A stretch of DNA of 20,455 nt from positions 1 through 20,455 of IMG/VR virus record IMGVR_UViG_3300045988_013649; one strand, written 5' to 3'. Below, piece after piece: positions 29 through 20,455 of this stretch. Made by a program: the position numbers and the translations under genes. This stretch comes from a virus. The notes beneath the pieces were generated by a model, which saw only the letters and a list, made by a program, of their open reading frames with translations, made no database searches and was not told the DNA's origin. The first letter of the stretch is position 1, and each line of letters opens with the position of its first letter.

Positions 29-1914
29 TCACTGACTTTGCTCCATATATTTGTTGCTACAGTTAAGATAACAGACCAAATATTCGCTACGATTGTAGCT
101 ATGATTTCTACAATCGGCATGATAAATCCTAGTATAGTTGCAATAGCCGTTCCAACATATGTGATTACTGTACTTATAAATGAAATAATCCCACTTACAA
201 CACTTCCTACAACTGTTAGAATAGATGTTATTACAGGAATCATTTCAGTTATCACTGAGATAATCTTTTGAATAATTGCTAGAATCGGTGGTCCTACTAC
301 TGTAAGAATCTTTTGTGCTTGATTCACAATGTTTTGAATAACTTCAATAATCTTGCTTAATATATCTTTTGCGATAGGTTCAAGTGCAACTTTCATCTGC
401 TCAATTGCTTTTTTTACTTCATCAAATGCAGGCTTTAAGACTTTGGAAACTTGGTTAACGATATTTGTGATTCCACTTGTATCAATGCTACCAAATACGC
501 TTGAAATAACTTCACCGACTTTGGCAAACCCTTTTTGAATATCTTGTATAGCTAATGTAATTAATACAATGATACCGGAAAGAATAGGGGTAATAAGTTC
601 GCCGATTGGAGTAAATGAATCAAGAAATGCACGTCCTAAACCACTTAAAGCGTTCTTTAAGCCACCGTTTGCGATAGCCTTAACCTTATCCATTGTTCCG
701 GCTACATTGTTATATTCATCACCTACAGATGATAAAGATGTAATAAACTTAAGGTTGAAATCTTCTCCCATTGTGCCGAATGCAATACTTGCTTTGTTTA
801 ATGCTTCTTGTTGATTTGTTGTTTCCTTAATATCTTGGATGATTGCGTCTTGCACATCTTTTTGTGTTGCGCCACCTTCTTTATATGCTTGGAAAACTTC
901 TTTTGTCTTATCATTGAAACTATCTAATGATTTTTCGATAGTTCCGTCTGACATTCTTGTAGTAATTTCATTTACTGCGTCATGCGCTTTATCAAGGTTA
1001 TAAGAACCACTTTTTACACCATTTGTAATAGTTTGTAAATATTCTTCTGCCGAATATCCTGCTTGCTTGAATTTACCTGCGTATTCTGCAATATTATCAC
1101 CTAATTCTCCGGAATAATCCAAACCATTCTGAGCACCTTTTGCTATAAGGTCAAAAGCTTTTTCGGAACTGATTCCAAATTGTTCCATTAATTGTTTCGC
1201 ACCTCTTAAGGTCTCATTCTCATCCATTCCATAAGCGTCTCTTAATGTAATCAAATCCTCGGTCACATTCTTTAGGTCAACATCACTTATGCCTTGCATT
1301 TGTTGCTTGACTCTGCCCATCATATCGGCAACATCTGAAATATCTTCACCGAAATTATTAGACCAAACATCACGAGCAATGTTTTTAAATTTATTCATTT
1401 CATTACTTGAAGCACCTGTTTGAGCTTGGAATTTAGCCATAGCGTCATCTAATTCCATGGCTTGATTAACACCTGTCTTAATTGCTAATGCCATGCCACC
1501 GATAGCTCCTGCCACGGCAGTAACACCAACAACTCCACCAACGCCTAATCCTGTTAATGTTTCTGTGATTGCAGTAGCTTCCGGACTAATATTCTGAATC
1601 TTTCCTAATAGTCCGTCAAATCCACCTTGAATTGATTCTAATGCACTATTACCTACTTGTTTAAATACATCAAATTTAGAACCTGTTTCTGTTGTTTCTG
1701 TCTGTGTATTCTTTTGTTCGCTATTTAGCTTTCTTAATTCATCCGTAATCTTTGGTGGTGCTTTTGAACCCTCAGAACCTAACTTATCTATCGCATTTGA
1801 AGTATCTTTAATAGCATTTGTAGCTTTATTTGATACATCACTAACCGATTTAATACCATTTTCAAGACCACTTGTATCTATCTTTGTATCAAACTTTAAT
1901 GTTCCATCTGCTAT
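29..1914 (-). CDS. tail tape measure protein, C-terminally truncated by the contig edge
   Basis: I translated the minus frame from 1914 to base 1 and found no stop in 638 codons. It is absent from the ORF track because no stop is reached. The product reads ADGTLKFDTKIDTSGLENG...MELDDAMAKFQAQTGASSNEMNKF...GYSAEEYLQTITNGVKSGSYNLDKAHDAVNEITTRM. It has a Gly/Ala/Val TM-like segment and a long hydrophobic helical tail, and it lies downstream of the chaperone pair. The first 133 codons contain no ATG/GTG/TTG. ATA at 1912-1914 follows an in-frame TGA (1915-1917), with SD AAGGAGGTG at 1924-1932. Confidence 0.85.
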
Positions 1915-2875: not shown

Positions 2876-3382
2876 TTATACTTCTGATGTACCTTCTGTA
2901 AATGTTACTGTTCCATCTGCTACCTTTGCAGTACCGACACGAATATCACTTGCAAAGTTAATGTTGAAGTTGATTTTTGAATCGACACCACTTAATGTGT
3001 CAAAGATTAATTTAGTGTCAACTTCCCACGCTTTATATCCTTTTGTTTTGTCTCCGTCAAACATGAATACAAGTAAAGCTTTTGTGTTTACTTCTTCATT
3101 GTCCGGAACGGATTTCATCATTTTTTCATAGATGTATTCGAAATCATCTTCACCTTTAATCATTGTTAAATCTTGTGCAATCTGAGGTGAATAACTCTTC
3201 AATGATTCTGTAGGATTCTTATCTGCGATAAAGTCATATGTCTCCGTTTCACTGTTAAATGAAATATCCAAAGTTGTAGACTTCTTGATACGCTTGTACC
3301 CTGTTCCCATTTCCAAGAACAAACCAATCATATACTTTTTGACTGTTTGTCCTACGCTTACTTCAGTTCCTTGAGTTGTTAT
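2876..3382 (-). CDS. major tail protein (start placed at ATA 3380-3382)
   Basis: The track ORF is 2876..3331, but its ATG has no SD. The frame is open back to 3385, just after an in-frame TAA at 3386-3388. SD AAAGGAG (3391-3397) lies 8 nt before the ATA. The product is a beta-rich ~168-aa protein in the canonical tail-tube position. Confidence 0.75.
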   Translation of the reverse strand: MTTQGTEVSVGQTVKKYMIGLFLEMGTGYKRIKKSTTLDISFNSETETYDFIADKNPTESLKSYSPQIAQDLTMIKGEDDFEYIYEKMMKSVPDNEEVNTKALLVFMFDGDKTKGYKAWEVDTKLIFDTLSGVDSKINFNINFASDIRVGTAKVADGTVTFTEGTSEV

Positions 3383-3801
3383 TAATTAAGCTCCTTTCTG
3401 TATTTAATTTGAATAGTTAATGCATATACTGCTTGACTATCCTCATTTGTGTATAGATATAAACCACTTGAAACGGAAACATCATCACAATATTTGTTTC
3501 CGTCTAGTTGTGGTAATTCTCCATTTAAATTCTTTTCGTCAATCCATTCTCCTAATTCTTCTAAGAAGGAATTGTTGTCTTGTCTCTCGGATTCAATCTG
3601 TGTATTCCTACGTGCTAGAAACGTATAGTATTCAGTACGCATTTGAGAGCCGTCAATGTATGTATCTACAATTGCGTTAGGTTCTTTGTATAACGCATAA
3701 GAGATAGCTTGTTGCGCTAAAACATCCGTTTCAATACGTTCATCTATCTGTATATTTCCATATCCATATAGCCATTGAATCAACGCTTTTGATACTGTCA
3801 T
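3382..3801 (-). CDS. neck / tail-completion protein (position-based)
   Basis: This is a 139-aa ORF with an ATG in an ATGA overlap with the upstream gene. SD GGAGGT lies 5 nt upstream. It is the last of four small genes between the capsid and tail tube genes. Confidence 0.6.
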   Translation of the reverse strand: MTVSKALIQWLYGYGNIQIDERIETDVLAQQAISYALYKEPNAIVDTYIDGSQMRTEYYTFLARRNTQIESERQDNNSFLEELGEWIDEKNLNGELPQLDGNKYCDDVSVSSGLYLYTNEDSQAVYALTIQIKYRKELN

Positions 3802-5016: not shown

Positions 5017-5886
5017 TTACTTAGCACTAGCAGATAAGTAAATACCTGCTACCTTATTTGCGTATACATCAACGATTCCATACTTACGATATTTCAATAC
5101 ATCTGAATCTGATTCAATGTTATTGCTTGCAGGAATTACATTTGAAACGGTGTGTTTATCCCATTTCATTACGGCAGGTTTATGAACAATCAAGAAGTTG
5201 ATTACGTGTCCATCTTCTGCCTTTTCGTATCCGCCATCTAACTCTGTATCTTTTCCACTCAACAATTTGATTTTTGTATAGAAACGACTAGCAGGTACAG
5301 GAACAACTTTTGCGAATCCTTGTAAAGCTTCACGAGATTTGTATGTATCTAATGCCTTAACGCCATTTAATAATGTAGGTGTAGCATACAAGATACGTTG
5401 TTCGCTAGGAACTTCATCTTCATCCATTTTAGTAGTTGCCGTTAATAATGCGCTCAAGAACTCTTCTGAAGTTGTATAATCTTCGGCAACTGTTGTGATT
5501 CCTGTTGTTCCGGCAATTTTAGCAAATGTATAAGCGTCTGCTTCCGGTGCTACCTTTGTACGCATTAATTCTGCTCCTGCCATACCGAACGCAATATTCA
5601 TTGATTCGGCATTGTCTTGTGTATCGACTGAGATTTTAGTTCCTCTATCATAGTCGAATGTAGCAGTTTTCCATTCTAACTTAACTGAGTTACCTGTATA
5701 ACCACTATTTCTATCATAGTTTCCTAAACCTTTGACTGAAATTTGTGGATAGATGATTTCTTTTGCGTTCGCTCCTGCTCGTACCATTGTAGCGTCTGCA
5801 TTTAAATCACCTGTTACTGAAGCTAACTTATACACCTCATCTAGATTTGAGACATACGTTTTAGCTAGTGCAATTTGATTTGGTAT
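5017..5886 (-). CDS. major capsid protein (start placed at ATA 5884-5886)
   Basis: The track ORF starts at GTG 5835, which has no SD. The frame is open to 5889, after an in-frame TAA at 5890-5892. SD AAGGAGG (5896-5902) lies 9 nt before the ATA. The extended N-terminus is IPNQIALAKTYVSNLDEVYKLASVTGDL. The body (GLGNYDRNSGYTGNSVKLEWKTATFDYDRGTKISVDTQDNAES) looks like a Firmicutes-phage capsid family, and the gene follows the scaffold gene. Confidence 0.85.
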   Translation of the reverse strand: MPNQIALAKTYVSNLDEVYKLASVTGDLNADATMVRAGANAKEIIYPQISVKGLGNYDRNSGYTGNSVKLEWKTATFDYDRGTKISVDTQDNAESMNIAFGMAGAELMRTKVAPEADAYTFAKIAGTTGITTVAEDYTTSEEFLSALLTATTKMDEDEVPSEQRILYATPTLLNGVKALDTYKSREALQGFAKVVPVPASRFYTKIKLLSGKDTELDGGYEKAEDGHVINFLIVHKPAVMKWDKHTVSNVIPASNNIESDSDVLKYRKYGIVDVYANKVAGIYLSASAK

Positions 5887-5900
5887 TAATTAAATCCTCC

Positions 5901-6485
5901 TTATTTCTTTTCTGTAGTTAAACCCATTGCTTGTCGCAATAATAAATCTTCGGCGTTTGGGTTTTCTCCTTGCCCACTGCTTCCAACGATATTTCCTGTT
6001 GCAGTAGGTCCTTTCTGTTCTTCTTCAAATAAGATTGGCTTATTTTCTTTCAAAGTCTTGAAAGCCTTGTCAATATCATTTGTTTGGTCTTTGGAATTTA
6101 GTAAATCATCATAATTGAATTGTGATTTTGCTAAATCGAAATCTTTACATCCGTATTCTTTAGCTTTTGCACTTAATACAGAATCAAGATTCATTTTGCT
6201 AATCTGAGTTTCATATGTAGTCTTTTGAGTGTCAATATCATTCGTCAATGTATTGATTTTATTTCTCAATTCTTCTACATCAACCCCATCATAGCTTTCC
6301 TTGAATTTATCAAAATTTTTTTGAATATCCTTTGCGTTGTTCTCTGCTAAAGATAGCTTTTCTTTTTGCTTATCGAACTCCGCAATCGTCTTATAGTTAT
6401 CATTTACTAGCTTTGTAACTGATTCCTCTTGTTCTTTGGTTAATTCAATGTTTGATTCTTTTAAAATTTCAATAATGTTTTTCAT
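5901..6485 (-). CDS. scaffolding protein
   Basis: This is a 194-aa acidic, coiled-coil protein with an ATG start and SD GGAGGG. It lies directly upstream of the capsid gene and resembles GP20-type scaffold proteins. Confidence 0.8.
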   Translation of the reverse strand: MKNIIEILKESNIELTKEQEESVTKLVNDNYKTIAEFDKQKEKLSLAENNAKDIQKNFDKFKESYDGVDVEELRNKINTLTNDIDTQKTTYETQISKMNLDSVLSAKAKEYGCKDFDLAKSQFNYDDLLNSKDQTNDIDKAFKTLKENKPILFEEEQKGPTATGNIVGSSGQGENPNAEDLLLRQAMGLTTEKK

Positions 6486-9548: not shown

Positions 9549-10937
9549 CTACCCTCCATAATTGATATTTGCTTTAATATCATTTCCATTATTGAAATAT
9601 ATCTTTTTAACTTTTTTTATAACTCCGTTATCGTTATACCAAACCTTAGCTTGAATTAATTTCCCTGTATCAGAAATCATTTCTGCTAATAGAACATTTC
9701 CTTTTTTATCTGTTATTTCAAATCCATCTTTAGTTAAGATAGCTTCTTGATAATCAATAACATGATATGCAATCTTTGCTTGGTCTGCAGGTGTCGTAAA
9801 TCCCACGTTAGCGTAATCTGAAGGAGTGCCGAAATCATCTACAATTCTAATGTAGAATGTGTATATAGTTTCCGGTACTAAATCATCCACAACTAACTTT
9901 GTTTGCGTCTGTAAATCCTTCCATATTATTCCATCATATGAATACTGATAATAATATGAGTTTGCACCTTCTTTAATTTCAAAACCACTCCAAGTAAATG
10001 TAGCTCCAAACGGATTCAAATCTGTATAACTTACACTTCCTTTGCTAGGTTTATCCGGTTTGGTAGTTTTAAACACTACCTTTACTGAATCAGAAGGTGT
10101 GCTAAAGTTATCAACAATTCTTACATAATATGTATATTCAGTATTAGGGCTTAACCTTGATACTTCAAATCCTGTCCCTTTTGACCTATCTATCCAATTA
10201 TTATCATCAGTAGATGATTGATAATAATAATCTGTTGCACCTTCTTGAATGCTAAATCCACTCCATGAAATATAAGCAGATTTATAAGTAATATTAGAAG
10301 CTTCTACCTTTCCTGCTTTTGGCTTGTTTGGTTTCTGAGTCTTTATAAATTTGCTAACAGGATTTTCTAAAAGTACACTTGTATCTCCTCGGTATCTTAC
10401 ATAGCAATTTACCTCGTATTCTTTGTTTGGGGTTAATCCCTCAAATTTTCCTTCAGTGCCGATTTTAGAAGTCTTATCTAAAGTTGCTTTAATTGTGTAG
10501 AAATTATAAGGATTTGATTCCAAAGTAGCTTTATAACTTACAGAATTATAAGTACTGCTTAATTCAATATCTTTGATTTTCGGTATAGATATAGTAGCTG
10601 ATTCAGTTTGCAAACCACTTGCAGAAATATTTCCGAAGCTAGTACTAAAATATATATTTCTAGAATCTTCTCTATTATTCGTAGAAAATGAATACTCTAG
10701 TGTTCCACTAGCTAATGCCCACGTTCCTGCTCCACCTGTGTTTATGTTTACAGTATGGCTATTGTATCCAAAATAAATAACTGCTCCATTGTATTGCGTT
10801 GAGTTATTATAAAATGCGTGTTGTAGATAAATTGTATATGAAACTTTATGTTTAATGTTCGGATATGTTCCTTCTATGTAATTGCTACAATCTACACGAA
10901 AGCTAATTCCATGTATACCTGTATAATAAGTAGCCAT
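9549..10937 (-). CDS. structural protein with tandem FN3-like domains
   Basis: This is a 462-aa ORF with an ATG start and SD AGAGGTG. Two ~90-aa repeats (aa 202-292 and 293-382) each carry W..F...EGA..YYYQ....W..........L.P.T.YT.Y.RIVD.F.TPSD. A weaker third copy lies at aa ~120-200. The N-terminal domain is beta-rich and DUF859-like. Confidence 0.75.
   Translation of the reverse strand: MATYYTGIHGISFRVDCSNYIEGTYPNIKHKVSYTIYLQHAFYNNSTQYNGAVIYFGYNSHTVNINTGGAGTWALASGTLEYSFSTNNREDSRNIYFSTSFGNISASGLQTESATISIPKIKDIELSSTYNSVSYKATLESNPYNFYTIKATLDKTSKIGTEGKFEGLTPNKEYEVNCYVRYRGDTSVLLENPVSKFIKTQKPNKPKAGKVEASNITYKSAYISWSGFSIQEGATDYYYQSSTDDNNWIDRSKGTGFEVSRLSPNTEYTYYVRIVDNFSTPSDSVKVVFKTTKPDKPSKGSVSYTDLNPFGATFTWSGFEIKEGANSYYYQYSYDGIIWKDLQTQTKLVVDDLVPETIYTFYIRIVDDFGTPSDYANVGFTTPADQAKIAYHVIDYQEAILTKDGFEITDKKGNVLLAEMISDTGKLIQAKVWYNDNGVIKKVKKIYFNNGNDIKANINYGG
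9792..10334 (-). repeat. in-frame tandem duplication encoding two FN3-like modules
   Basis: Copy 1 (10062..10334) reads KPNKPKAGKVEASNITYKSAYISWSGFSIQEGATDYYYQ...YYVRIVDNFSTPSDSVKVVFKTT. Copy 2 (9792..10061) reads KPDKPSKGSVSYTDLNPFGATFTWSGFEIKEGANSYYYQ...FYIRIVDDFGTPSDYANVGFTT. Confidence 0.85.
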
Positions 10938-10940
10938 AAA

Positions 10941-11702
10941 CTACACCTCTAACTGAAAATAGAAATATCCTGCAGGACAAGTTTCTAAAGTTGGTACATC
11001 TGTACCTATCTTGTATTTAATTTCCTGTCTTGCTTTTAATTCCATCTGTTCTTTTTCTAAGTCTTGAATCATTAAAAGAAGCTTTCCACCTTCTCCTTCT
11101 CCAAGAACATCTTTAACAATTGCGAACCAATCATCCCATGCTTTTTGATTCTCTTGTATAGCTTTTGCGTATTCTTTTTTTGCTTCTGCTATTGCTTCTG
11201 CAAATTGGTTAAAGAATTGTGTTGTATCTATCTGCTTAATTGCGTTTGTAACAACTCCACATCTACTTGAATCTAATCTAGTATCAGTAATATCTGAGCC
11301 TTTAATTTCTGTTGAGTTACCTTGTACCTTTACAGTCGCTAAAACTAAATCATAGATAGAATCTGTTCTTGTGATTGATTCACTAGCTACTACACTAATA
11401 TTTCTATAAGAATCGTTGTCGTTTAATCTCAATACAATATTGTATGTCTTTGTGGAACTAGAATTTGTTAATGTGATGGTTTCGTCGTCTTTTTGCCAAT
11501 AGAACGCTCCATTAATGTTTGCTCGTCCTGCTTTAATTGTTAATGTTAAGCCTTGAGCTTTCTCAACTCTTAAATGGTCTGTACTAGAATCATCTACGAA
11601 CACGCCGTTTGTAAAGTAGCTTGAGAACAATCTTCTGAAAGCGTCATATAATACTAATCTATCACCATTTCTAGAGATGAATGGAAAATATGTTGTTGCT
11701 AT
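10941..11702 (-). CDS. tail-fibre-like protein (start placed at ATA 11700-11702)
   Basis: The track starts at TTG 11630. The frame is open to 11708, after an in-frame TGA at 11709-11711. The extended N-terminus is ATTYFPFISRNGDRLVLYDAFRRLFSSYFTNGVF, which matches the YFPF.S..GDR.Y.A..F...F..NGVF motif of prophage fibre proteins as I recall it. The ATA overlaps the portal TAG as ATAG. SD GGAGAGGAGG is at 11713-11722. Confidence 0.7.
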   Translation of the reverse strand: MATTYFPFISRNGDRLVLYDAFRRLFSSYFTNGVFVDDSSTDHLRVEKAQGLTLTIKAGRANINGAFYWQKDDETITLTNSSSTKTYNIVLRLNDNDSYRNISVVASESITRTDSIYDLVLATVKVQGNSTEIKGSDITDTRLDSSRCGVVTNAIKQIDTTQFFNQFAEAIAEAKKEYAKAIQENQKAWDDWFAIVKDVLGEGEGGKLLLMIQDLEKEQMELKARQEIKYKIGTDVPTLETCPAGYFYFQLEV

Positions 11703-13102
11703 TCTTCTTCATCCTCCTCTCCATCATCTTGAATTTCTTCATTTAATAACTCTGTTGCTTCTTCTTCAGTAAAGCCATATTGTTTCATGAAATACATAAT
11801 CTTTAATCTTGGAATATCAAATGTTAATGCGTCATTTCTTAACGCTTGTGCAGTGCTTTGCTTATCTTCGATATAAGTATCATCATAATCAATAGCAATG
11901 TCTAATGAATTAATATTAAGCTTTCTTCCTTGCGTTAATTCATAGAAGTATGCTATTGCTTGAATAATACCTTGAATATATGCAGTAGATTCTTTGCGTT
12001 GTGAGTTTACTTCCTTCATAGCGTCTTGATTCTCACCGATATATTCTGTTGCCGTTACGATTCTTCCACTCTCAAACGTGTATTTTTTTGTACCGAATCC
12101 AAACATCATAGATAAGATACTTAATGCAGTTTCTAACGACTGCACAACCTCTTGTGTTCTAACTGTTGGATTATATTCTTGCCATAAAGCTTTTTCTTCC
12201 GGCAACTTGTCTCTACCCAATTGCACGAAGATATTCTTTAATTGTGGATTCTGTTTCACTTTTCCGTTCTTGTCTTTCTGCATTAATGCTTCATTTACAA
12301 GAACGATTTTATCTGATTTCAATAAATCTCGATTCCACATTGTCATTGTCAAGTCAATTGTTTTCAAAGGAGCAATTGCACTCCAAATCTTAGGCAAGCC
12401 GTACCCTTGCATTTGTAAGTTGTTTACCTTTGCATTTCTCATAATTGCAAAAGGTTTAACCACATCTAATTGAACAATCTGAGCACGCTCTTTTATTTCC
12501 TCGCCTGTATCTTTGAAGTAATGTGTTTCTGCAATATATCTTTCGTCTTGTCCTTTTAAGAACATGACCATCACATATACTTTTTTTAACTTCTCATAAT
12601 TTACTCCAACGAAAGCTACCTCAACGATTTCATCATTGATAACAGTTAATGGGAGGATATTCATTGAATCACAATAGTTGATTCTGATTTCTCCTCCACT
12701 AAATGAACCATCTTCATAAATCTCGGCATTTGATACCGTCACATAAGCTCCTACTGTTCCGTTTGCAGACATTTGCTCAACTTGTTTCCTATACATTACA
12801 TCAAACCTATTCTTTGTTAGAATGTCTGAAATAATGTCATTTGTTGTACTGTCTTCAGTTGCGTTTATATCTAGGATTTCAATTAGGTTTGCGTCATCTT
12901 CGCATAAACGCTTTGCAAAGTCTGTCTTGTCTAGCGTGTATTCCTCATTGTTCAAGGTGTATGCCGTATGAAATTCTGTTTCGGTATTTGTGTACCACTT
13001 GTTGCACAATTCAATAATCTCAATTGCGTTTGTATCTACATAATACCCTCTATCGTTTAGGTAATTTTGAAACCACGGTCTACGTGTGTTAGATGTTTCT
13101 AT
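11699..13102 (-). CDS. portal protein, SPP1 gp6-like (start placed at ATA 13100-13102)
   Basis: The track starts at TTG 13009. The frame is open to 13105, directly after the terL TAA at 13106-13108. A perfect SD AAGGAGG (13109-13115) lies 6 nt before the ATA. The extended N-terminus is ETSNTRRPWFQNYLNDRGYYVDTNAIEIIELCNKWYTNTETEFH, which fits portal N-termini (..gy.v......I..W..WY.....FH). The protein is ~467 aa, has an acidic C-terminus, and follows terL. Confidence 0.88.
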   Translation of the reverse strand: METSNTRRPWFQNYLNDRGYYVDTNAIEIIELCNKWYTNTETEFHTAYTLNNEEYTLDKTDFAKRLCEDDANLIEILDINATEDSTTNDIISDILTKNRFDVMYRKQVEQMSANGTVGAYVTVSNAEIYEDGSFSGGEIRINYCDSMNILPLTVINDEIVEVAFVGVNYEKLKKVYVMVMFLKGQDERYIAETHYFKDTGEEIKERAQIVQLDVVKPFAIMRNAKVNNLQMQGYGLPKIWSAIAPLKTIDLTMTMWNRDLLKSDKIVLVNEALMQKDKNGKVKQNPQLKNIFVQLGRDKLPEEKALWQEYNPTVRTQEVVQSLETALSILSMMFGFGTKKYTFESGRIVTATEYIGENQDAMKEVNSQRKESTAYIQGIIQAIAYFYELTQGRKLNINSLDIAIDYDDTYIEDKQSTAQALRNDALTFDIPRLKIMYFMKQYGFTEEEATELLNEEIQDDGEEDEEE

Positions 13103-13105
13103 TTC

Positions 13106-14440
13106 TTACCTCCTTAAATCTATATATCCACTATGGGTTATAAATGTATAGCAGAACGAATCCCAATCATCATTGATATTGTTTACGTTCTCATCTATTG
13201 GAATGTCTTCCTTTTTATCCCATACCAATTCGCTTAATGCGTTTATTAAGTTCTTACAATGTTCTTCTATCTTTAGCCTACCTGTAACAAGTAAGCTATC
13301 AACCGTTATAGGACGGTCTGCAAGCTCATTCTTCTTAACTGGTGCAATTATACTTCCGTCTAATCCTTCGGCGTAAAAATAAGCTCTAAGCGTGTTTATA
13401 AGTGTATTTGAAGCACTATCCGGAAATATCCACTCTACATATCCGTAACATTCAACACAACGCTTATAGAACCTTACAAACGCTTTGCAAAACTTTGTTG
13501 CGTCTATTGCATTTGACTTTGCCATGTCTCCTTCATCAAGTGCCCACATATAATCCCAATCATTTGTAAACCCTGTTAAGTGCCATGAATACTTTGAGCC
13601 ATTGTCTCCAAAGTCAACACCTATGATTAAATGACTAAACCTTTTTCCTTTTTCATTCATCTTTTCTTTTAGACTCTGATATTTAAATAAATAAGGTTTG
13701 CAGTCATTTGCAAAATAAGGGAATACAAGTCCTTCGGCTTCTTCCCTTTGTCCTTTTATGTCTCTTTTGTAATAAACGCTATTCTTATCGTATGATTTCA
13801 AGACTGTTCTTATCTGCTCATCACTTAAAGAATAATTGTCAACTAAGGTGGTATGCCCATAGTTGTAACCATATGTAGAATCTTTATTCTGTTGCTCCTC
13901 ATGATATTTCAAGAAATCTGTGTAATACCAATGATTCTTGCCTTTTGGGTTTAAATCATGAAATATCTTTCTATCGCTTGACGCTATCGTTCTATCCATC
14001 ACTTCTTGTAGAAACTCAATGCAACAAAGGTTTGCTTCTGTTACATATGCCATTCCATAAGAATAACCATGTATTGCATTCTCTGAGCCTTTCTTAGCAC
14101 CACCGGCAAAGAATACAACCTTTTCTCCAACCTTTGTGTTGATGTAATAACAGTCTTTACCTTCATACTTTCCCACTTTGAATCTATTCGCAAAGTAGTT
14201 CTGCAATCCATATCCATTACAATCTCCAATATTAACACGTGCAGATGATGTATCTGTTCCTGCTATTAAATGGAACTTATCCGGATGTGTTTCTAAAGCA
14301 ATACAGAAAGCGTATGTATTTAATACATTCTTTCCGCCTCTTTTCCCACCTTCTAATACATTAAGCCATGAATCGAATGTTCTTTTAAGATAAGTTAATT
14401 GTTTTTGATTGAAAGGCGCAGGCTTATTCAAAATCTTCAA
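13106..14440 (-). CDS. terL: terminase large subunit (PBSX / Terminase_3-like)
   Basis: This is a 444-aa ORF starting at TTG 14438-14440, which is the first possible start after an in-frame TAG. It has a Walker-A-like LEGGKRGGKN and an N-terminal PFNQKQ motif. It overlaps the terS end. Confidence 0.9.
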   Translation of the reverse strand: MKILNKPAPFNQKQLTYLKRTFDSWLNVLEGGKRGGKNVLNTYAFCIALETHPDKFHLIAGTDTSSARVNIGDCNGYGLQNYFANRFKVGKYEGKDCYYINTKVGEKVVFFAGGAKKGSENAIHGYSYGMAYVTEANLCCIEFLQEVMDRTIASSDRKIFHDLNPKGKNHWYYTDFLKYHEEQQNKDSTYGYNYGHTTLVDNYSLSDEQIRTVLKSYDKNSVYYKRDIKGQREEAEGLVFPYFANDCKPYLFKYQSLKEKMNEKGKRFSHLIIGVDFGDNGSKYSWHLTGFTNDWDYMWALDEGDMAKSNAIDATKFCKAFVRFYKRCVECYGYVEWIFPDSASNTLINTLRAYFYAEGLDGSIIAPVKKNELADRPITVDSLLVTGRLKIEEHCKNLINALSELVWDKKEDIPIDENVNNINDDWDSFCYTFITHSGYIDLRR

Positions 14441-14813
14441 TTCTTCTTTCTTTTGCTACATCTGTAATCATAGCTTTATTAATTGCATTTACTTCTGAAG
14501 CGTCAAAATGTGTTTCTACCTTATCTGATTGACCTAGGAATTGTTTGCCTAAGAAAATAGCCATTGCAGGACTCTTTGAAGCTAGTTTAAATTGCGCTCT
14601 TCGTAACGAAATTCTTCCTTGTGCGCCGAACCTTTTTAAACATTCGGAGAAATCAGTTCCATATGTACGTTTGCACCATTTTGATAGTGTCTTATCTGTC
14701 GTGTTAAAAAAATAGCATACTTCTGCTTGCGTGCATTGAATAGCTAACAATTTTTCAAATTCTTCTTTGTCGAAATCCTTGTTAGGTCTTCCAACTTTTC
14801 CATTCGCTATTAT
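14424..14813 (-). CDS. terS: terminase small subunit with HTH (start placed at ATA 14811-14813)
   Basis: The body LAIQCTQAEVCYFFNTTDKTLSKWCKRTYG...ISLRRAQFKLASKSPAMAIFLGKQFLGQSD is a typical terS. The conserved N-terminal GRPNKDFDKEEFEKL lies upstream of the track TTG at 14750. The frame is open to 14825, after TAG at 14826-14828. The only start-like codons there are ATA ATA (14808-14813), 5 and 8 nt after SD AAAGGGG (14819-14825). Confidence 0.85.
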   Translation of the reverse strand: MIANGKVGRPNKDFDKEEFEKLLAIQCTQAEVCYFFNTTDKTLSKWCKRTYGTDFSECLKRFGAQGRISLRRAQFKLASKSPAMAIFLGKQFLGQSDKVETHFDASEVNAINKAMITDVAKERRIEDFE

Positions 14814-15222: not shown

Positions 15223-15243
15223 AACCGAGACAAACGCTCGGTT
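15223..15243 (-). terminator. candidate intrinsic terminator downstream of the tRNA-like gene
   Basis: On the minus strand the hairpin AACCGAG-CGTTTGT-CTCGGTT has a 7-bp stem and is followed by CTTTTAATAA. Confidence 0.4.
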
Positions 15244-15397: not shown

Positions 15398-15473
15398 TGG
15401 TTGCAGGAGAAGGATTTGCACCATTCGACCTCTAGCTAATAAGACTAGTGAGCTACTACTGCTCTATCCTGCT
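15398..15473 (-). tRNA. tRNA-like gene, anticodon UAU (reads AUA), initiator-like acceptor and D arms; non-canonical T arm
   Basis: Hand-folded minus strand: AGCAGGA TA GAGC AGTAGTA GCTC A CTAGT CTTATTA GCTAG AGGTC GAA(T)GG TGCAAAT CCTTC TCCTGCA A CCA. All four stems form and the CCA is encoded. Anomalies are an A1xA72 mismatch, a bulged U in the T stem, G55 in the T loop, U37, and a short D loop with a single G. Confidence 0.55.
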
Positions 15474-15496: not shown

Positions 15497-15513
15497 TGCT
15501 CACATTGTGAGCA
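15497..15513 (-). terminator. rho-independent terminator of the late-activator gene
   Basis: On the minus strand TGCTCAC-AAT-GTGAGCA has a 7-bp stem and is followed by TTTTTT. The TGA stop at 15500-15502 lies inside the stem. Confidence 0.7.
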
Positions 15514-15826
15514 CTTTCTTTAAATTCTTGTTTATTTTTCTTGGAATTTCTTCTCTTGCATAACCTACAATATTAGATGTCTTTTCTGCACTGAATCCCT
15601 TTATATATCTATACTCAATCATGGCTCGAGTCGTATCATCAAGTTGGCTTAATTTGTCTTTTACATAGTTCATTCTTCTTGCATAATCTGCATGAGCTAA
15701 GAATAGCTCGGCTTTTAAAGGATAAATTGCTTCATCCCTTTGTAACTCTGCTATCTTTTGCTCATAGTATGTATAAGATTGGCATTCACACAAGAAGTGT
15801 CGTTTTACATCTTCATAGGTGCTCAT
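15500..15826 (-). CDS. late-gene transcriptional activator, sigma-70 region-4-like HTH (RinA/ArpU/DUF1492-like)
   Basis: This is a 108-aa ORF with an ATG in an ATGA overlap. The C-terminal LDDTTRAMIEYRYIKGFSAEKTSNIVGYAREEIPRKINKNLKKV fits the region-4 HTH pattern. It sits in the canonical position just upstream of the terminase genes. Confidence 0.6.
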   Translation of the reverse strand: MSTYEDVKRHFLCECQSYTYYEQKIAELQRDEAIYPLKAELFLAHADYARRMNYVKDKLSQLDDTTRAMIEYRYIKGFSAEKTSNIVGYAREEIPRKINKNLKKVLTM

Positions 15827-16033: not shown

Positions 16034-16621
16034 TTAATTTAATGTCTTTATAAAATCACAATATCGTTTTATATAGCTCCATTTGTTTGAATATTTGTAA
16101 TATTTGCTAGAATGCTCTCCTACACTTATTTGACTTATCCCTATAACATCTTTACTAGGAATTACTAATACATCTAAAACTTTTTCATCATCACTAAGTA
16201 TGTACAAGATATATATGTCGCAAGTTGGATATATTTTTTCTAAATTGAATGTGTAAAAGCTCCCATTCCTACCTCTGTATAAAGTACTCGCTTTCACATC
16301 AACTTTTACACATTCATTCACTAAAATATCATACGGATGTTTTGTAGACATTTTAATAGCTTCATATCCTTTATTCTCTATATAATCCATGAATTTCAAT
16401 TCATATTTTCTGCCGAAATTTGTTCTACTTGGTTTTGATTCTAAATGTAATTCTTTCGCTAAAGGAAACCATAAATTTCTTTTTGAAATTGCATTGCCTA
16501 ATTTTGAATCTCCATAGTATTCTTCAACTTCTCTTCTTGTAGGCATTCTGTTTAATCCTGTATCAATAATCATTTCTTTGATTTGTGATTTTATCTTTTC
16601 TTCTGTCCAGTGTTCTCTTAT
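16034..16621 (-). CDS. PD-(D/E)XK-like nuclease (possible free-standing homing endonuclease or resolvase)
   Basis: GRKYELKFMDYIENKGYEAIKMSTKHPYDILVNECVKVDVKAS gives an E...D...(D)xK arrangement like Hjc/restriction-fold nucleases. The frame is open upstream of ATG 16573, which has a poor SD, back to 16624. ATA at 16619-16621 lies 6 nt after GGAGGT (16627-16632). The extension reads REHWTEEKIKSQIKE. Confidence 0.55.
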   Translation of the reverse strand: MREHWTEEKIKSQIKEMIIDTGLNRMPTRREVEEYYGDSKLGNAISKRNLWFPLAKELHLESKPSRTNFGRKYELKFMDYIENKGYEAIKMSTKHPYDILVNECVKVDVKASTLYRGRNGSFYTFNLEKIYPTCDIYILYILSDDEKVLDVLVIPSKDVIGISQISVGEHSSKYYKYSNKWSYIKRYCDFIKTLN

Positions 16622-20087: not shown

Positions 20088-20410
20088 CTATGCTCCTAAT
20101 ATTTCCCTTCTCACTCGTTCCATTTCCTTATGTACATCTGCATACGATTGATTGCTTTCTTGTACATAGAATTTAGAATCAAGTTTTACAGGCTTGTTCT
20201 TATTTCTTTTCATCCATTCATCATGTACCCACTTCTGAATCACAAGTGAATGGTTTTTGTATTTCTTTCCACTCGTTTCAATATATTCATCTAATATCTT
20301 TATATGCTCATCCAATGAATCACTATATAAATCTAATAGGTGTGTGTGTTCTTTATCTGTTAATAGAACGTGTGAATATTCACCGTATTTGTGTTTGTGC
20401 GTACATACAC
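20088..20410 (-). CDS. replication-associated protein, C-terminal fragment (5' end lost at contig edge)
   Basis: HVLLTDKEHTHLLDLYSDSLDEHIKILDEYIETSGKKYKNHSLVIQKWV resembles the conserved phage C-terminal domain found on DnaD-like replication proteins (..LT.EEY..L.......I..LD.Y....GKKYKS....I..W). The first 15 residues of the track ORF (MLRSLVGSEMCIRDS) are translated adapter. Confidence 0.5.
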
Positions 20411-20455
20411 TGTCTCTTATACACATCTCCGAGCCCACGAGACTCCTGAGCATCT
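20410..20455. other. Illumina Nextera adapter read-through with i7 index (library artefact)
   Basis: CTGTCTCTTATACACATCT (20410-20428) is followed by CCGAGCCCACGAGAC, then TCCTGAGC, then ATCT. This is the mosaic end, the Read-2 adapter, an 8-nt index I recall as N704, and the start of the P7 sequence. Confidence 0.97.

Follow-up and report, generated by a model that had tools for sequence, protein, structure and literature searches.

ATA start codons and an initiator-type tRNA with a UAU anticodon in a clade of gut phages

The DNA analyzed in the current work is a stretch of 20,455 nucleotides (here called the "window"), corresponding to positions 1 to 20,455 of the IMG/VR virus record IMGVR_UViG_3300045988_013649, which represents a temperate siphovirus module with a GC content of 33.7%. 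Comparison of its sequence with those of relatives leaves very little doubt that the major capsid gene of this phage, located on the minus strand, is translated from an ATA codon (5886-5884), and further genes of the window display the same arrangement of a strong Shine-Dalgarno (SD) sequence followed by ATA. The window also carries a gene for an initiator-type tRNA with anticodon UAU, here named tRNA(UAU); this phage-encoded initiator tRNA probably decodes the AUA starts, for which we infer that it is expressed, charged and formylated. On balance, the data lean towards a natural start-codon recoding by a clade of gut phages, in which the anticodon of an initiator tRNA would have been switched and about one third of the genes preceded by a strong SD would have been moved from ATG to ATA.

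Start of the major capsid gene

The elements of the capsid locus are as follows.
5017..5886, minus strand: coding sequence of the major capsid protein, 289 codons when read from ATA, with its stop codon at 5019-5017.
5884..5886, minus strand: ATA, the very probable start codon of the major capsid gene, on which the ATGs of homologues align and which is invariant in close relatives.
5896..5900, minus strand: SD sequence GGAGG, 9 nt upstream of the capsid ATA.

On the minus strand, the stop codon TAA of the scaffold gene (5903-5901, in the context GAA ATA A) is located directly 5' of the capsid SD, and the spacer between GGAGG and ATA has the sequence ATTTAATTA. An in-frame TAA (5892-5890) is followed by TTA (5889-5887) and then by ATA (5886-5884) CCA AAT CAA ATT GCA, so that the order given in a preliminary description of this DNA (scaffold stop, SD, in-frame TAA, TTA, ATA) is indeed the one that is read. 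The capsid frame is open from ATA through a GTG (5835-5833) to the stop codon at 5019-5017, and the ATA-initiated extension translates as IPNQIALAKTYVSNLDE-VYK, running directly into the listed open reading frame (ORF) as that description had stated. The ORF list gives GTG 5835 as the sole canonical start, from which the capsid version has 272 codons; the sequence preceding this GTG (..TCTAGATGAG) contains no SD at a usable spacing, in agreement with the earlier remark that purine-rich sequence is absent there. The stretch from the in-frame TAA to GTG 5835 offers just two near-cognate codons, ATA at 9 nt from the SD and ATT 5874 at 21 nt.

The gene upstream of the capsid gene matches Pfam Phage_scaffold (E=3.9e-22), and the capsid protein read from ATA matches the major head protein profile phrog_422 in a PHROG profile search (E=2.3e-65), its residues 3-288 aligning with profile positions 3-294 of 297. 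This full-length match, together with the scaffold-then-capsid gene order, identifies the product as an HK97-type major head protein (PHROG 422). GenBank phages gave no match to the capsid region in a megablast search, and protein-level searches were therefore required; tblastn against the same phages retrieved 63 records, whose alignments start at query residue 1 or 2. Annotated homologues are those of Eggerthella phage PMBT5, Ruminococcus phage RG-TP1 and bajarodcaudo virus 4. Alignment with capsid homologues, which the preliminary description had proposed as a check, places the ATG of the annotated homologues exactly on the window ATA or, in one gapped alignment, one residue off. The 17 residues that follow the start are conserved (MANSITKFKAYTSMLDEVYKLAS and MPNAITKF..DEVYKLAS in homologues, as compared to IPNQIALAKTYVSNLDEVYKLAS in the window) and are kept down to a capsid identity of 47-54%, the common N-terminal motif of distant homologues with an ATG being MPNxIxLAKNY..LDEVYK or M[AP]NxIxLAK..LDEVYK. 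The Val specified by the GTG of the ORF list corresponds to the conserved internal V of DEVYK, for which homologues use the codons GTC, GTA and GTT.

Within IMG/VR, the capsid start is ATA in all 35 contigs with a capsid identity of at least 92% (referred to below as the ATA clade), while it is ATG in all 45 contigs with a capsid identity of at most 66% (the ATG clade). ATA is likewise found in ten more metagenome contigs, which stem from different studies and share the capsid identity of at least 92%, bringing the total to 45 of 45. Among these close relatives, the spacer varies (ATTTAATTA, ATTAATTA or ATATAATTA; 8-9 nt, with GGAGG and ATA retained), as does the second codon (CCA, GCA or GCG), and in none of the 45 is ATA replaced by ATT or ATC. 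Since ATA is invariant while its neighbors change, sequencing error is ruled out and the codon appears to be under selection as a start. Positioning of the SD, alignment of homologous ATGs, a profile match from position 3 and invariance among relatives thus all support the ATA start that the preliminary description had proposed for this gene; the wider use of ATA starts by the phage and the matching tRNA described below had gone unnoticed in it.

ATA starts in other genes and the tRNA(UAU) gene

All minus-strand ORFs of the window were scanned for the same layout (a strong SD, then ATA), which revealed six genes in addition to the capsid gene, in each of which the first canonical start is situated 16-31 codons further in.
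1912..1914, minus strand: ATA start of the tape measure gene, which runs off the window; AGGAGG + 11 nt.
3380..3382, minus strand: ATA start of the major-tail-like gene (coding sequence 2876-3382); AGGAG + 8 nt.
11700..11702, minus strand: ATA start of a head protein gene (coding sequence 10941-11702); phrog_1220 match from residue 3.
13100..13102, minus strand: ATA start of the portal gene (coding sequence 11699-13102); AAGGAGG + 6 nt.
14811..14813, minus strand: probable ATA start (ATA ATA) of the small terminase gene TerS (coding sequence 14424-14813); SD and ATA in the same layout.
16619..16621, minus strand: ATA start of an early/middle gene (coding sequence 16034-16621); GGAGG + 6 nt.

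Profile matches begin before the first canonical start in the case of the capsid, portal, head protein and tail protein genes and of gene 16621: the portal match to phrog_533 starts at residue 22, ahead of the first TTG (codon 32), and that of gene 16621 to phrog_28936 at residue 4, its first ATG being codon 17. No ATG, GTG or TTG is present within the first 100 codons of the tape measure orthologue. When start codons were counted in related loci, which are partly redundant, ATA was found for the tape measure gene in 82 of 82, for the head protein gene in 100 of 100, for the portal gene in 81 of 81 and for gene 16621 in 10 of 10, while genes that start with ATG in the window retain it in relatives (scaffold 85/85, minor capsid 88/88, tail completion 83/83). 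For the major-tail-like gene, ATA was counted in 80 related loci, with a single contig having ATG at this site, and the TerS alleles of relatives have, in the same context, either ATG (L089, L093) or ATA (L013); these ATG/ATA differences in the tail gene and TerS are natural interchanges. The contig with the tail-gene ATG is IMGVR_UViG_3300045988_064919 (L022 / L247), where it occurs in an identical context (AAAGGAGTTTAATTA ATG GCA).

The preliminary description had hinted at the major tail gene through a 10-mer shared with the capsid start, and the start of the tail gene is indeed ATA (3382-3380). The 10-mer itself, TTAATTAATA, is present on the minus strand at both 5884-5893 and 3380-3389 as stated, but its sharing is not significant on its own, as 0.51 matches are expected and at least two occur in 12 of 100 shuffles. 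At the junction of the portal and head protein genes, stop and start overlap as ATAG (11699-11702, minus strand), the ATA analogue of the common ATGA overlap, which suggests translational coupling of the two genes.

A complete relative genome of 37,889 bp was assembled from overlapping loci with zero mismatches, and its sites behind GGAGG or AGGAG comprise 18 ATG, 4 GTG/TTG and 12 with ATA only; further ATA starts in this genome belong to Dit, the holin, a GH25 lysin and a few early genes. Triplets located 5-10 nt after GGAGG or AGGAG and followed by a long ORF were then counted across the capsid loci of both clades.
ATA-clade capsid loci: ATA 362, ATG 289, ATT 99.
ATG-clade capsid loci: ATA 64, ATG 337, ATT 66.
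ATA is the commonest triplet behind a strong SD in the close relatives (Fisher p=2e-39 versus the more distant ones), and it is this combination of SD and ATA, not the shared 10-mer, that exceeds chance. About one third of the strong-SD genes of the phage use an AUA start; virion and lysis genes predominate among them (TerS, portal, head protein, capsid, major tail, tape measure, Dit, holin and lysin). Internal ATA codons, of which 82 occur in 26 window genes, align with I, V and L, as do ATT and ATC, and the elongation code is therefore considered to be unchanged. The large terminase gene, which overlaps the end of TerS, has a probable TTG start at 14431 (TTG AAT AAG CCT; 14431-14440, minus strand) that is preceded by a weak purine-rich stretch and aligns with the ATG of M-N-K-P-A-P in distant relatives; other members of the clade have ATG at this start.

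The tRNA gene immediately precedes the late operon, with a terminator-like hairpin on either side.
15398..15473, minus strand: initiator-type tRNA with anticodon UAU (15441-15439) and an encoded CCA; Rfam RF00005.
15223..15243, minus strand: terminator-like hairpin separating the tRNA from the first gene of the late operon.
15497..15513, palindromic, no strand assigned: terminator-like hairpin directly upstream of the tRNA.

The RF00005 match, in which 1:72 is marked as a non-standard pair, scores 48.8 bits (gathering score 29). ARAGORN calls a "tRNA-Ile(tat)" in three relatives (L019, L088, L089), approximately 9.3 kb upstream of the capsid gene, and the window carries the same 76-nt sequence at 15473-15398. 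An A1xA72 mismatch is present in all ten sequence variants, in which the formylation determinants G2:C71 and C3:G70 are likewise invariant and 94% of cloverleaf cells are paired. An A11:U24 pair in the D stem is a feature of bacterial initiator tRNA. The D stem of tRNA(UAU), GAGC/GCTC, contains this pair, which is invariant among the variants too, and is identical to that of Escherichia coli metZ and of phage initiator-type tRNAs, and position 73 is A. Two alleles of the anticodon stem (CTAGT/GCTAG and TCGGT/GCCGA) differ by three double compensatory changes. The anticodon loop reads CU-UAU-UA in 67 of 67 copies, in place of the CAU that defines the initiator tRNAfMet, while the gene also departs from an elongator tRNA-Ile(UAU) in having AxA at 1:72 and, at position 37, a U instead of a purine. 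BLAST of the tRNA against 5,426 E. coli genomes matched only tRNA-Met genes (80% identity, with a median of four matched sites in each genome); the match that was inspected is a three-gene cluster between mltA and amiC, which we take to be metZWV, the initiator tRNA genes. Matches in GenBank phages that are annotated at the matched site are all tRNA-Met. The window tRNA thus combines the body of an initiator tRNA with an anticodon that is the complement of AUA, and is not a tRNAfMet in the strict sense.

The gene directly upstream of the tRNA (15500-15826, minus strand) encodes 108 amino acids with a weak match to a sigma-factor family (phrog_1740, E=4.6e-4), and its product could be a late-gene activator.

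Association of tRNA(UAU) with ATA starts and competing explanations

The exact tRNA pattern was found in 35 IMG/VR contigs, including 30 of the 35 ATA-clade capsid contigs, and in none of the 45 ATG-clade contigs; four of the five ATA-clade contigs without it end before its position. Several ATG-clade contigs carry instead an initiator-type tRNA(CAU) with U1xU72, the full set of three G:C pairs in the anticodon stem and A11:U24, which suggests that carriage of an initiator tRNA is a habit of this phage group and that the anticodon was switched in the ATA clade. The tRNA(CAU) carriers (L048, L055, L061 at 2648-2722, L074, L076-L080, L083, L098 and L099) are Lachnospiraceae-type prophages, including those of [Clostridium] asparagiforme and Enterocloster lavalensis, and the anticodon loops of these phage tRNAs show the oddities C33, G37, C38 and U32.

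As a comparison set, 77 contigs of similar GC content that share the dUTPase neighborhood of the window were divided according to the presence of tRNA(UAU), and start triplets were counted.
With tRNA(UAU), 20 loci: ATA 74, ATG 235, ATT 33.
Without tRNA(UAU), 57 loci: ATA 27, ATG 636, ATT 96.
ATA versus ATG starts differ significantly with the presence of the tRNA (Fisher p=1.3e-19). Three of these dUTPase-sharing phages (L172, L176 and L185, first 420 nt) lie beside a host tRNA cluster Ser(GCU)-Asp(GUC)-Gly(GCC), of which only Asp and Gly are visible in L232 (first 230 nt); the cluster is probably their integration site and may be of use in tracing the hosts of this group of phages.

A relaxed pattern, requiring a UAU anticodon with an A11:U24 body, retrieved additional tRNAs. 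A second lineage (L286 and L290, the latter a 10.3-kb metagenome contig, OKRT01001577.1) has a canonical C1xA72, UAU, U37 and a normal T loop. In L290, SD and ATA precede TerS, portal, capsid and two more genes, the capsid start (AGGAG + 9 nt, ATA GCA AAC AGT) being IANSIALSKNYV, and the scaffold, minor capsid and TerL genes start with ATG. The L290 capsid is 54% identical to that of the window, as opposed to 61-67% for relatives with an ATG start; given that it is more distant and nevertheless starts with ATA, the tRNA is a better predictor of ATA starts than capsid phylogeny. Eight contigs of about 49% GC have a tRNA(UAU) with a paired C1:G72 and display no enrichment of ATA starts, and represent a useful negative control. 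These contigs (L280 at 9554-9595 on the minus strand, L281, L283-L285 and L287-L289; several of about 59 kb) have a TCGGG/CCCGA stem with the three G:C pairs and U73, and their tRNA may be an initiator-derived elongator for AUA.

In the mechanism that we propose, the phage tRNA would descend from tRNAfMet by a change of the anticodon from CAU to UAU. It would be aminoacylated and, owing to its 1x72 mismatch together with G2:C71 and C3:G70, formylated; once brought to the P site, it would pair perfectly with AUA, and this pairing is proposed to give the AUA-start genes efficient translation in the presence of the phage tRNA. Such a private initiation channel might gate late-protein synthesis or sustain it when host initiation is impaired. 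Among the window genes, no accessory translation factor (formyltransferase, IF3-like protein or aminoacyl-tRNA synthetase) was found, the sole lead being the weak sigma-factor match of the gene next to the tRNA. Methionyl-tRNA synthetase depends strongly on C34. In Bacillus subtilis, cells can grow with a U34 mutant of tRNA1-Ile, whose binding is strong to AUA but weak to AUG (PMC3919564). Formyl-Ile is therefore plausible, in which case the Ile written for the first residue in the preliminary description would be literal; the initiating amino acid is more likely to be Ile, through recognition of UAU by isoleucyl-tRNA synthetase, than Met. Precedent is available from metY with a CUA anticodon, which initiates at UAG with formyl-Gln (PMC3017606), and from other anticodon-mutant initiator tRNAs, which initiate at their cognate non-AUG codons (PMC11744186). 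The recoding proposed here would create an orthogonal initiation channel private to the phage, possibly with formyl-Ile starts.

Several observations weigh against this proposal. The three G:C pairs of the anticodon stem are considered important for P-site selection, though some mycoplasmas also do without the full set (PMC3017606), and the window allele has A29:U41, G30:C40 and U31.G39 at these positions, the second allele having G:C, G:C and U.G, so that only G30:C40 is invariant. The tRNA is atypical in its U37, its UGCAAAU T loop (with G55) and its short D loop; ARAGORN calls no tRNA in the window, the tRNA(UAU) copy included, and a simple promoter scan around the gene found no promoter on the minus strand. 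Two contigs of the clade, L023 and L032, contain no match to the tRNA pattern, while two UAU initiator-like tRNAs, in L279 (U1:A72) and L282 (C1xU72), are accompanied by no clear ATA starts within stretches that are short. In addition, AUA mRNA was as active as AUG mRNA in an optimized E. coli in vitro system (PMC5499595).

This last result favors an explanation in which host fMet-tRNA(CAU) reads AUA by a third-position mismatch aided by a strong SD, and tRNA(UAU) serves another purpose, such as the decoding of internal AUA codons or that of a nuclease-resistant decoy. Every ATA start indeed lies behind a strong SD at good spacing, the window contains 82 internal ATA codons that could be served, and evasion of host tRNA nucleases has been proposed for phage tRNAs whose anticodon loop is altered (PMC10264068). 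Against this stands a reported in vivo activity of AUA of 0.1-1% of that of AUG (PMC11744186), a level too low to be plausible for the virion proteins made in the largest amounts. Moreover, ATA enrichment is confined to genomes with tRNA(UAU), including the lineage whose capsid is only 54% identical, and does not occur in tRNA-less phages of similar GC content with shared neighborhood genes. This lineage-specific co-occurrence favors the phage tRNA over host fMet-tRNA as the reader of AUA. As regards the other purposes, the 1x72 mismatch prevents an initiator tRNA from engaging EF-Tu and acts jointly with 2:71 and 3:70 as the signal for formylation (PMC3017606), and so argues against use of tRNA(UAU) in elongation. 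Reading by the host tRNA is for these reasons regarded as unlikely, though it retains some weight.

The remaining alternatives fare considerably worse. That the capsid gene starts at GTG 5835 (or at ATG 5787), the upstream 17 codons being untranslated remnants, would agree with the consistent choice of a downstream GTG, ATG or TTG by gene callers and with the 256, 272, 275 or 283 amino acids of the public cluster members listed; yet no SD precedes the GTG while a perfect one points to ATA, the Val it encodes is an internal residue of DEVYK in homologues, and the upstream 17 residues are conserved and part of the family profile, which renders such a start very improbable. An artifact or decay, in which ATG would have been misread as ATA through an error of sequencing, assembly or base modification, or in which the start codons of a defective prophage would have mutated, might be suspected from the fact that the window is a raw contig with a presumed Nextera adapter at its end. 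We consider this more improbable still, as identical ATA codons occur in 45 independent assemblies from different studies, ATG starts are read normally in very similar contexts, at least seven genes with intact ORFs are affected in a conserved gene-specific pattern, and the complementary anticodon is encoded in cis; sequencing error and base modification were rejected on the first two of these grounds. Finally, a mitochondrion-like code with AUA as Met throughout would explain why ATA stands in for ATG at starts, but this reassignment was rejected and is given practically no credence: the alignment partners of internal ATA are I (36%), V (20%) and L (11%), like those of ATT and ATC, and Met is not among the eight commonest of them, whereas ATG aligns with M at 35%.

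Known systems, annotation and implications

An arrangement similar in design to the proposed recoding is that of engineered initiator tRNAs (E. coli metY(CUA), orthogonal initiation), which likewise combine a tRNAfMet body, a changed anticodon and a complementary non-AUG start; there too the 1x72 mismatch and formylation determinants are kept, and the new anticodon sets the amino acid, for example fGln (PMC3017606; PMC11744186). Those systems are lab-built, whereas the phage tRNA(UAU) is natural, is accompanied by at least ten genes whose start codons co-evolved, has lost part of the three-G:C motif and has U at position 37. Phage-encoded tRNAfMet(CAU) genes, with the 1x72 mismatch, three G:C pairs and A11:U24, occur in distant capsid relatives, and similar tRNA-Met genes in many GenBank phages; the window tRNA evidently comes from this stock and differs in the UAU anticodon, with which it should serve AUA and not AUG starts. 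Initiator tRNAs that combine the canonical stem with an anticodon lacking C34 (GCTCGTCGGGCTDNNAACCCGA) were searched for in IMG/VR, with no match.

Near-cognate starts in bacteria comprise GUG and UUG and, rarely, AUU or AUA, as in the AUU of infC. These resemble the phage starts in being non-AUG codons positioned by an SD, and ATA is on the permitted list of translation table 11; the AUA and AUU starts known from bacteria are rare, usually lower expression and rely on the normal initiator, whereas in the phage ATA is used on the most highly expressed virion genes, at about the frequency of ATG behind strong SDs, alongside an encoded cognate initiator-like tRNA. In mitochondria, AUA initiation relies on a single tRNAMet with a modified C34, and AUA is Met in elongation too. 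The likeness consists in an AUA start read by a tRNA that pairs with A at the third codon position; the difference is that one tRNA does both jobs in mitochondria, while in the phage AUA stays Ile internally and the initiator-like tRNA is dedicated. Suppressor-tRNA recoding in crAss-like and other gut phages similarly involves a phage tRNA that alters codon reading, mostly in late or lytic genes, and mis-annotation by standard gene callers (PMC10879173, PMC11210395), but acts at termination and elongation (TAG or TGA to sense), where the ATA system would act at initiation. The latter would be tRNA-mediated phage recoding on the initiation side, at the far end of that category. The literature, as far as it was covered and with a coverage that is incomplete, holds no description of a natural non-CAU phage initiator tRNA or of comparable ATA-start usage; if the recoding proposed here is true, this could be the first natural non-CAU initiator tRNA found in bacteria or phages.

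The host of the phage is probably Holdemanella, a member of the Erysipelotrichaceae, on the basis that RefSeq members of the capsid and tail-completion clusters are named "hypothetical protein [Holdemanella sp.]". The flanking host DNA was not reached by a walk out of a 101.8-kb contig (L087) or a look-up of the window-end proteins, and GTDB representative genomes contain no close relative (best identity 69% over a partial match, 67% full-length). At its minus-strand 5' end (20410-20453) the window carries CTCAGGAGTCTCGTGGGCTCGGAGATGTGTATAAGAGACAG, presumably the Illumina Nextera transposase adapter, which suggests that the window is a raw assembly contig whose adapter had not been trimmed; a 121-aa "ORF" (20088-20453) begins inside this sequence.

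The capsid cluster at 90% identity has 1224 members, and all 15 listed have 256-283 amino acids as compared to the 289 read from ATA, the N-terminally truncated entries listed including RefSeq WP_337526991.1 and WP_288536604.1. Called genes in ten contigs are similarly truncated (portal 436 amino acids, tape measure 719-837, tail protein 144 or 151), as are the gene calls for Dit and TerS. A systematic annotation error is thereby exposed, in which gene finders miss the ATA starts and cut off the N-termini, and phage gene finders should check for an initiator-like non-CAU tRNA and allow the matching start codon.

If the proposed recoding is true, not only stop codons but also the start codon can be recoded privately by a virus by means of its own tRNA, which would provide an initiation-side counterpart to stop-codon recoding by suppressor tRNAs and a natural example of the orthogonal initiation systems hitherto engineered by synthetic biologists. 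Synthesis of the late proteins could then be gated, or be independent of the host initiator tRNA, and this yields a directly testable prediction on how phages gate or protect the translation of their late genes.

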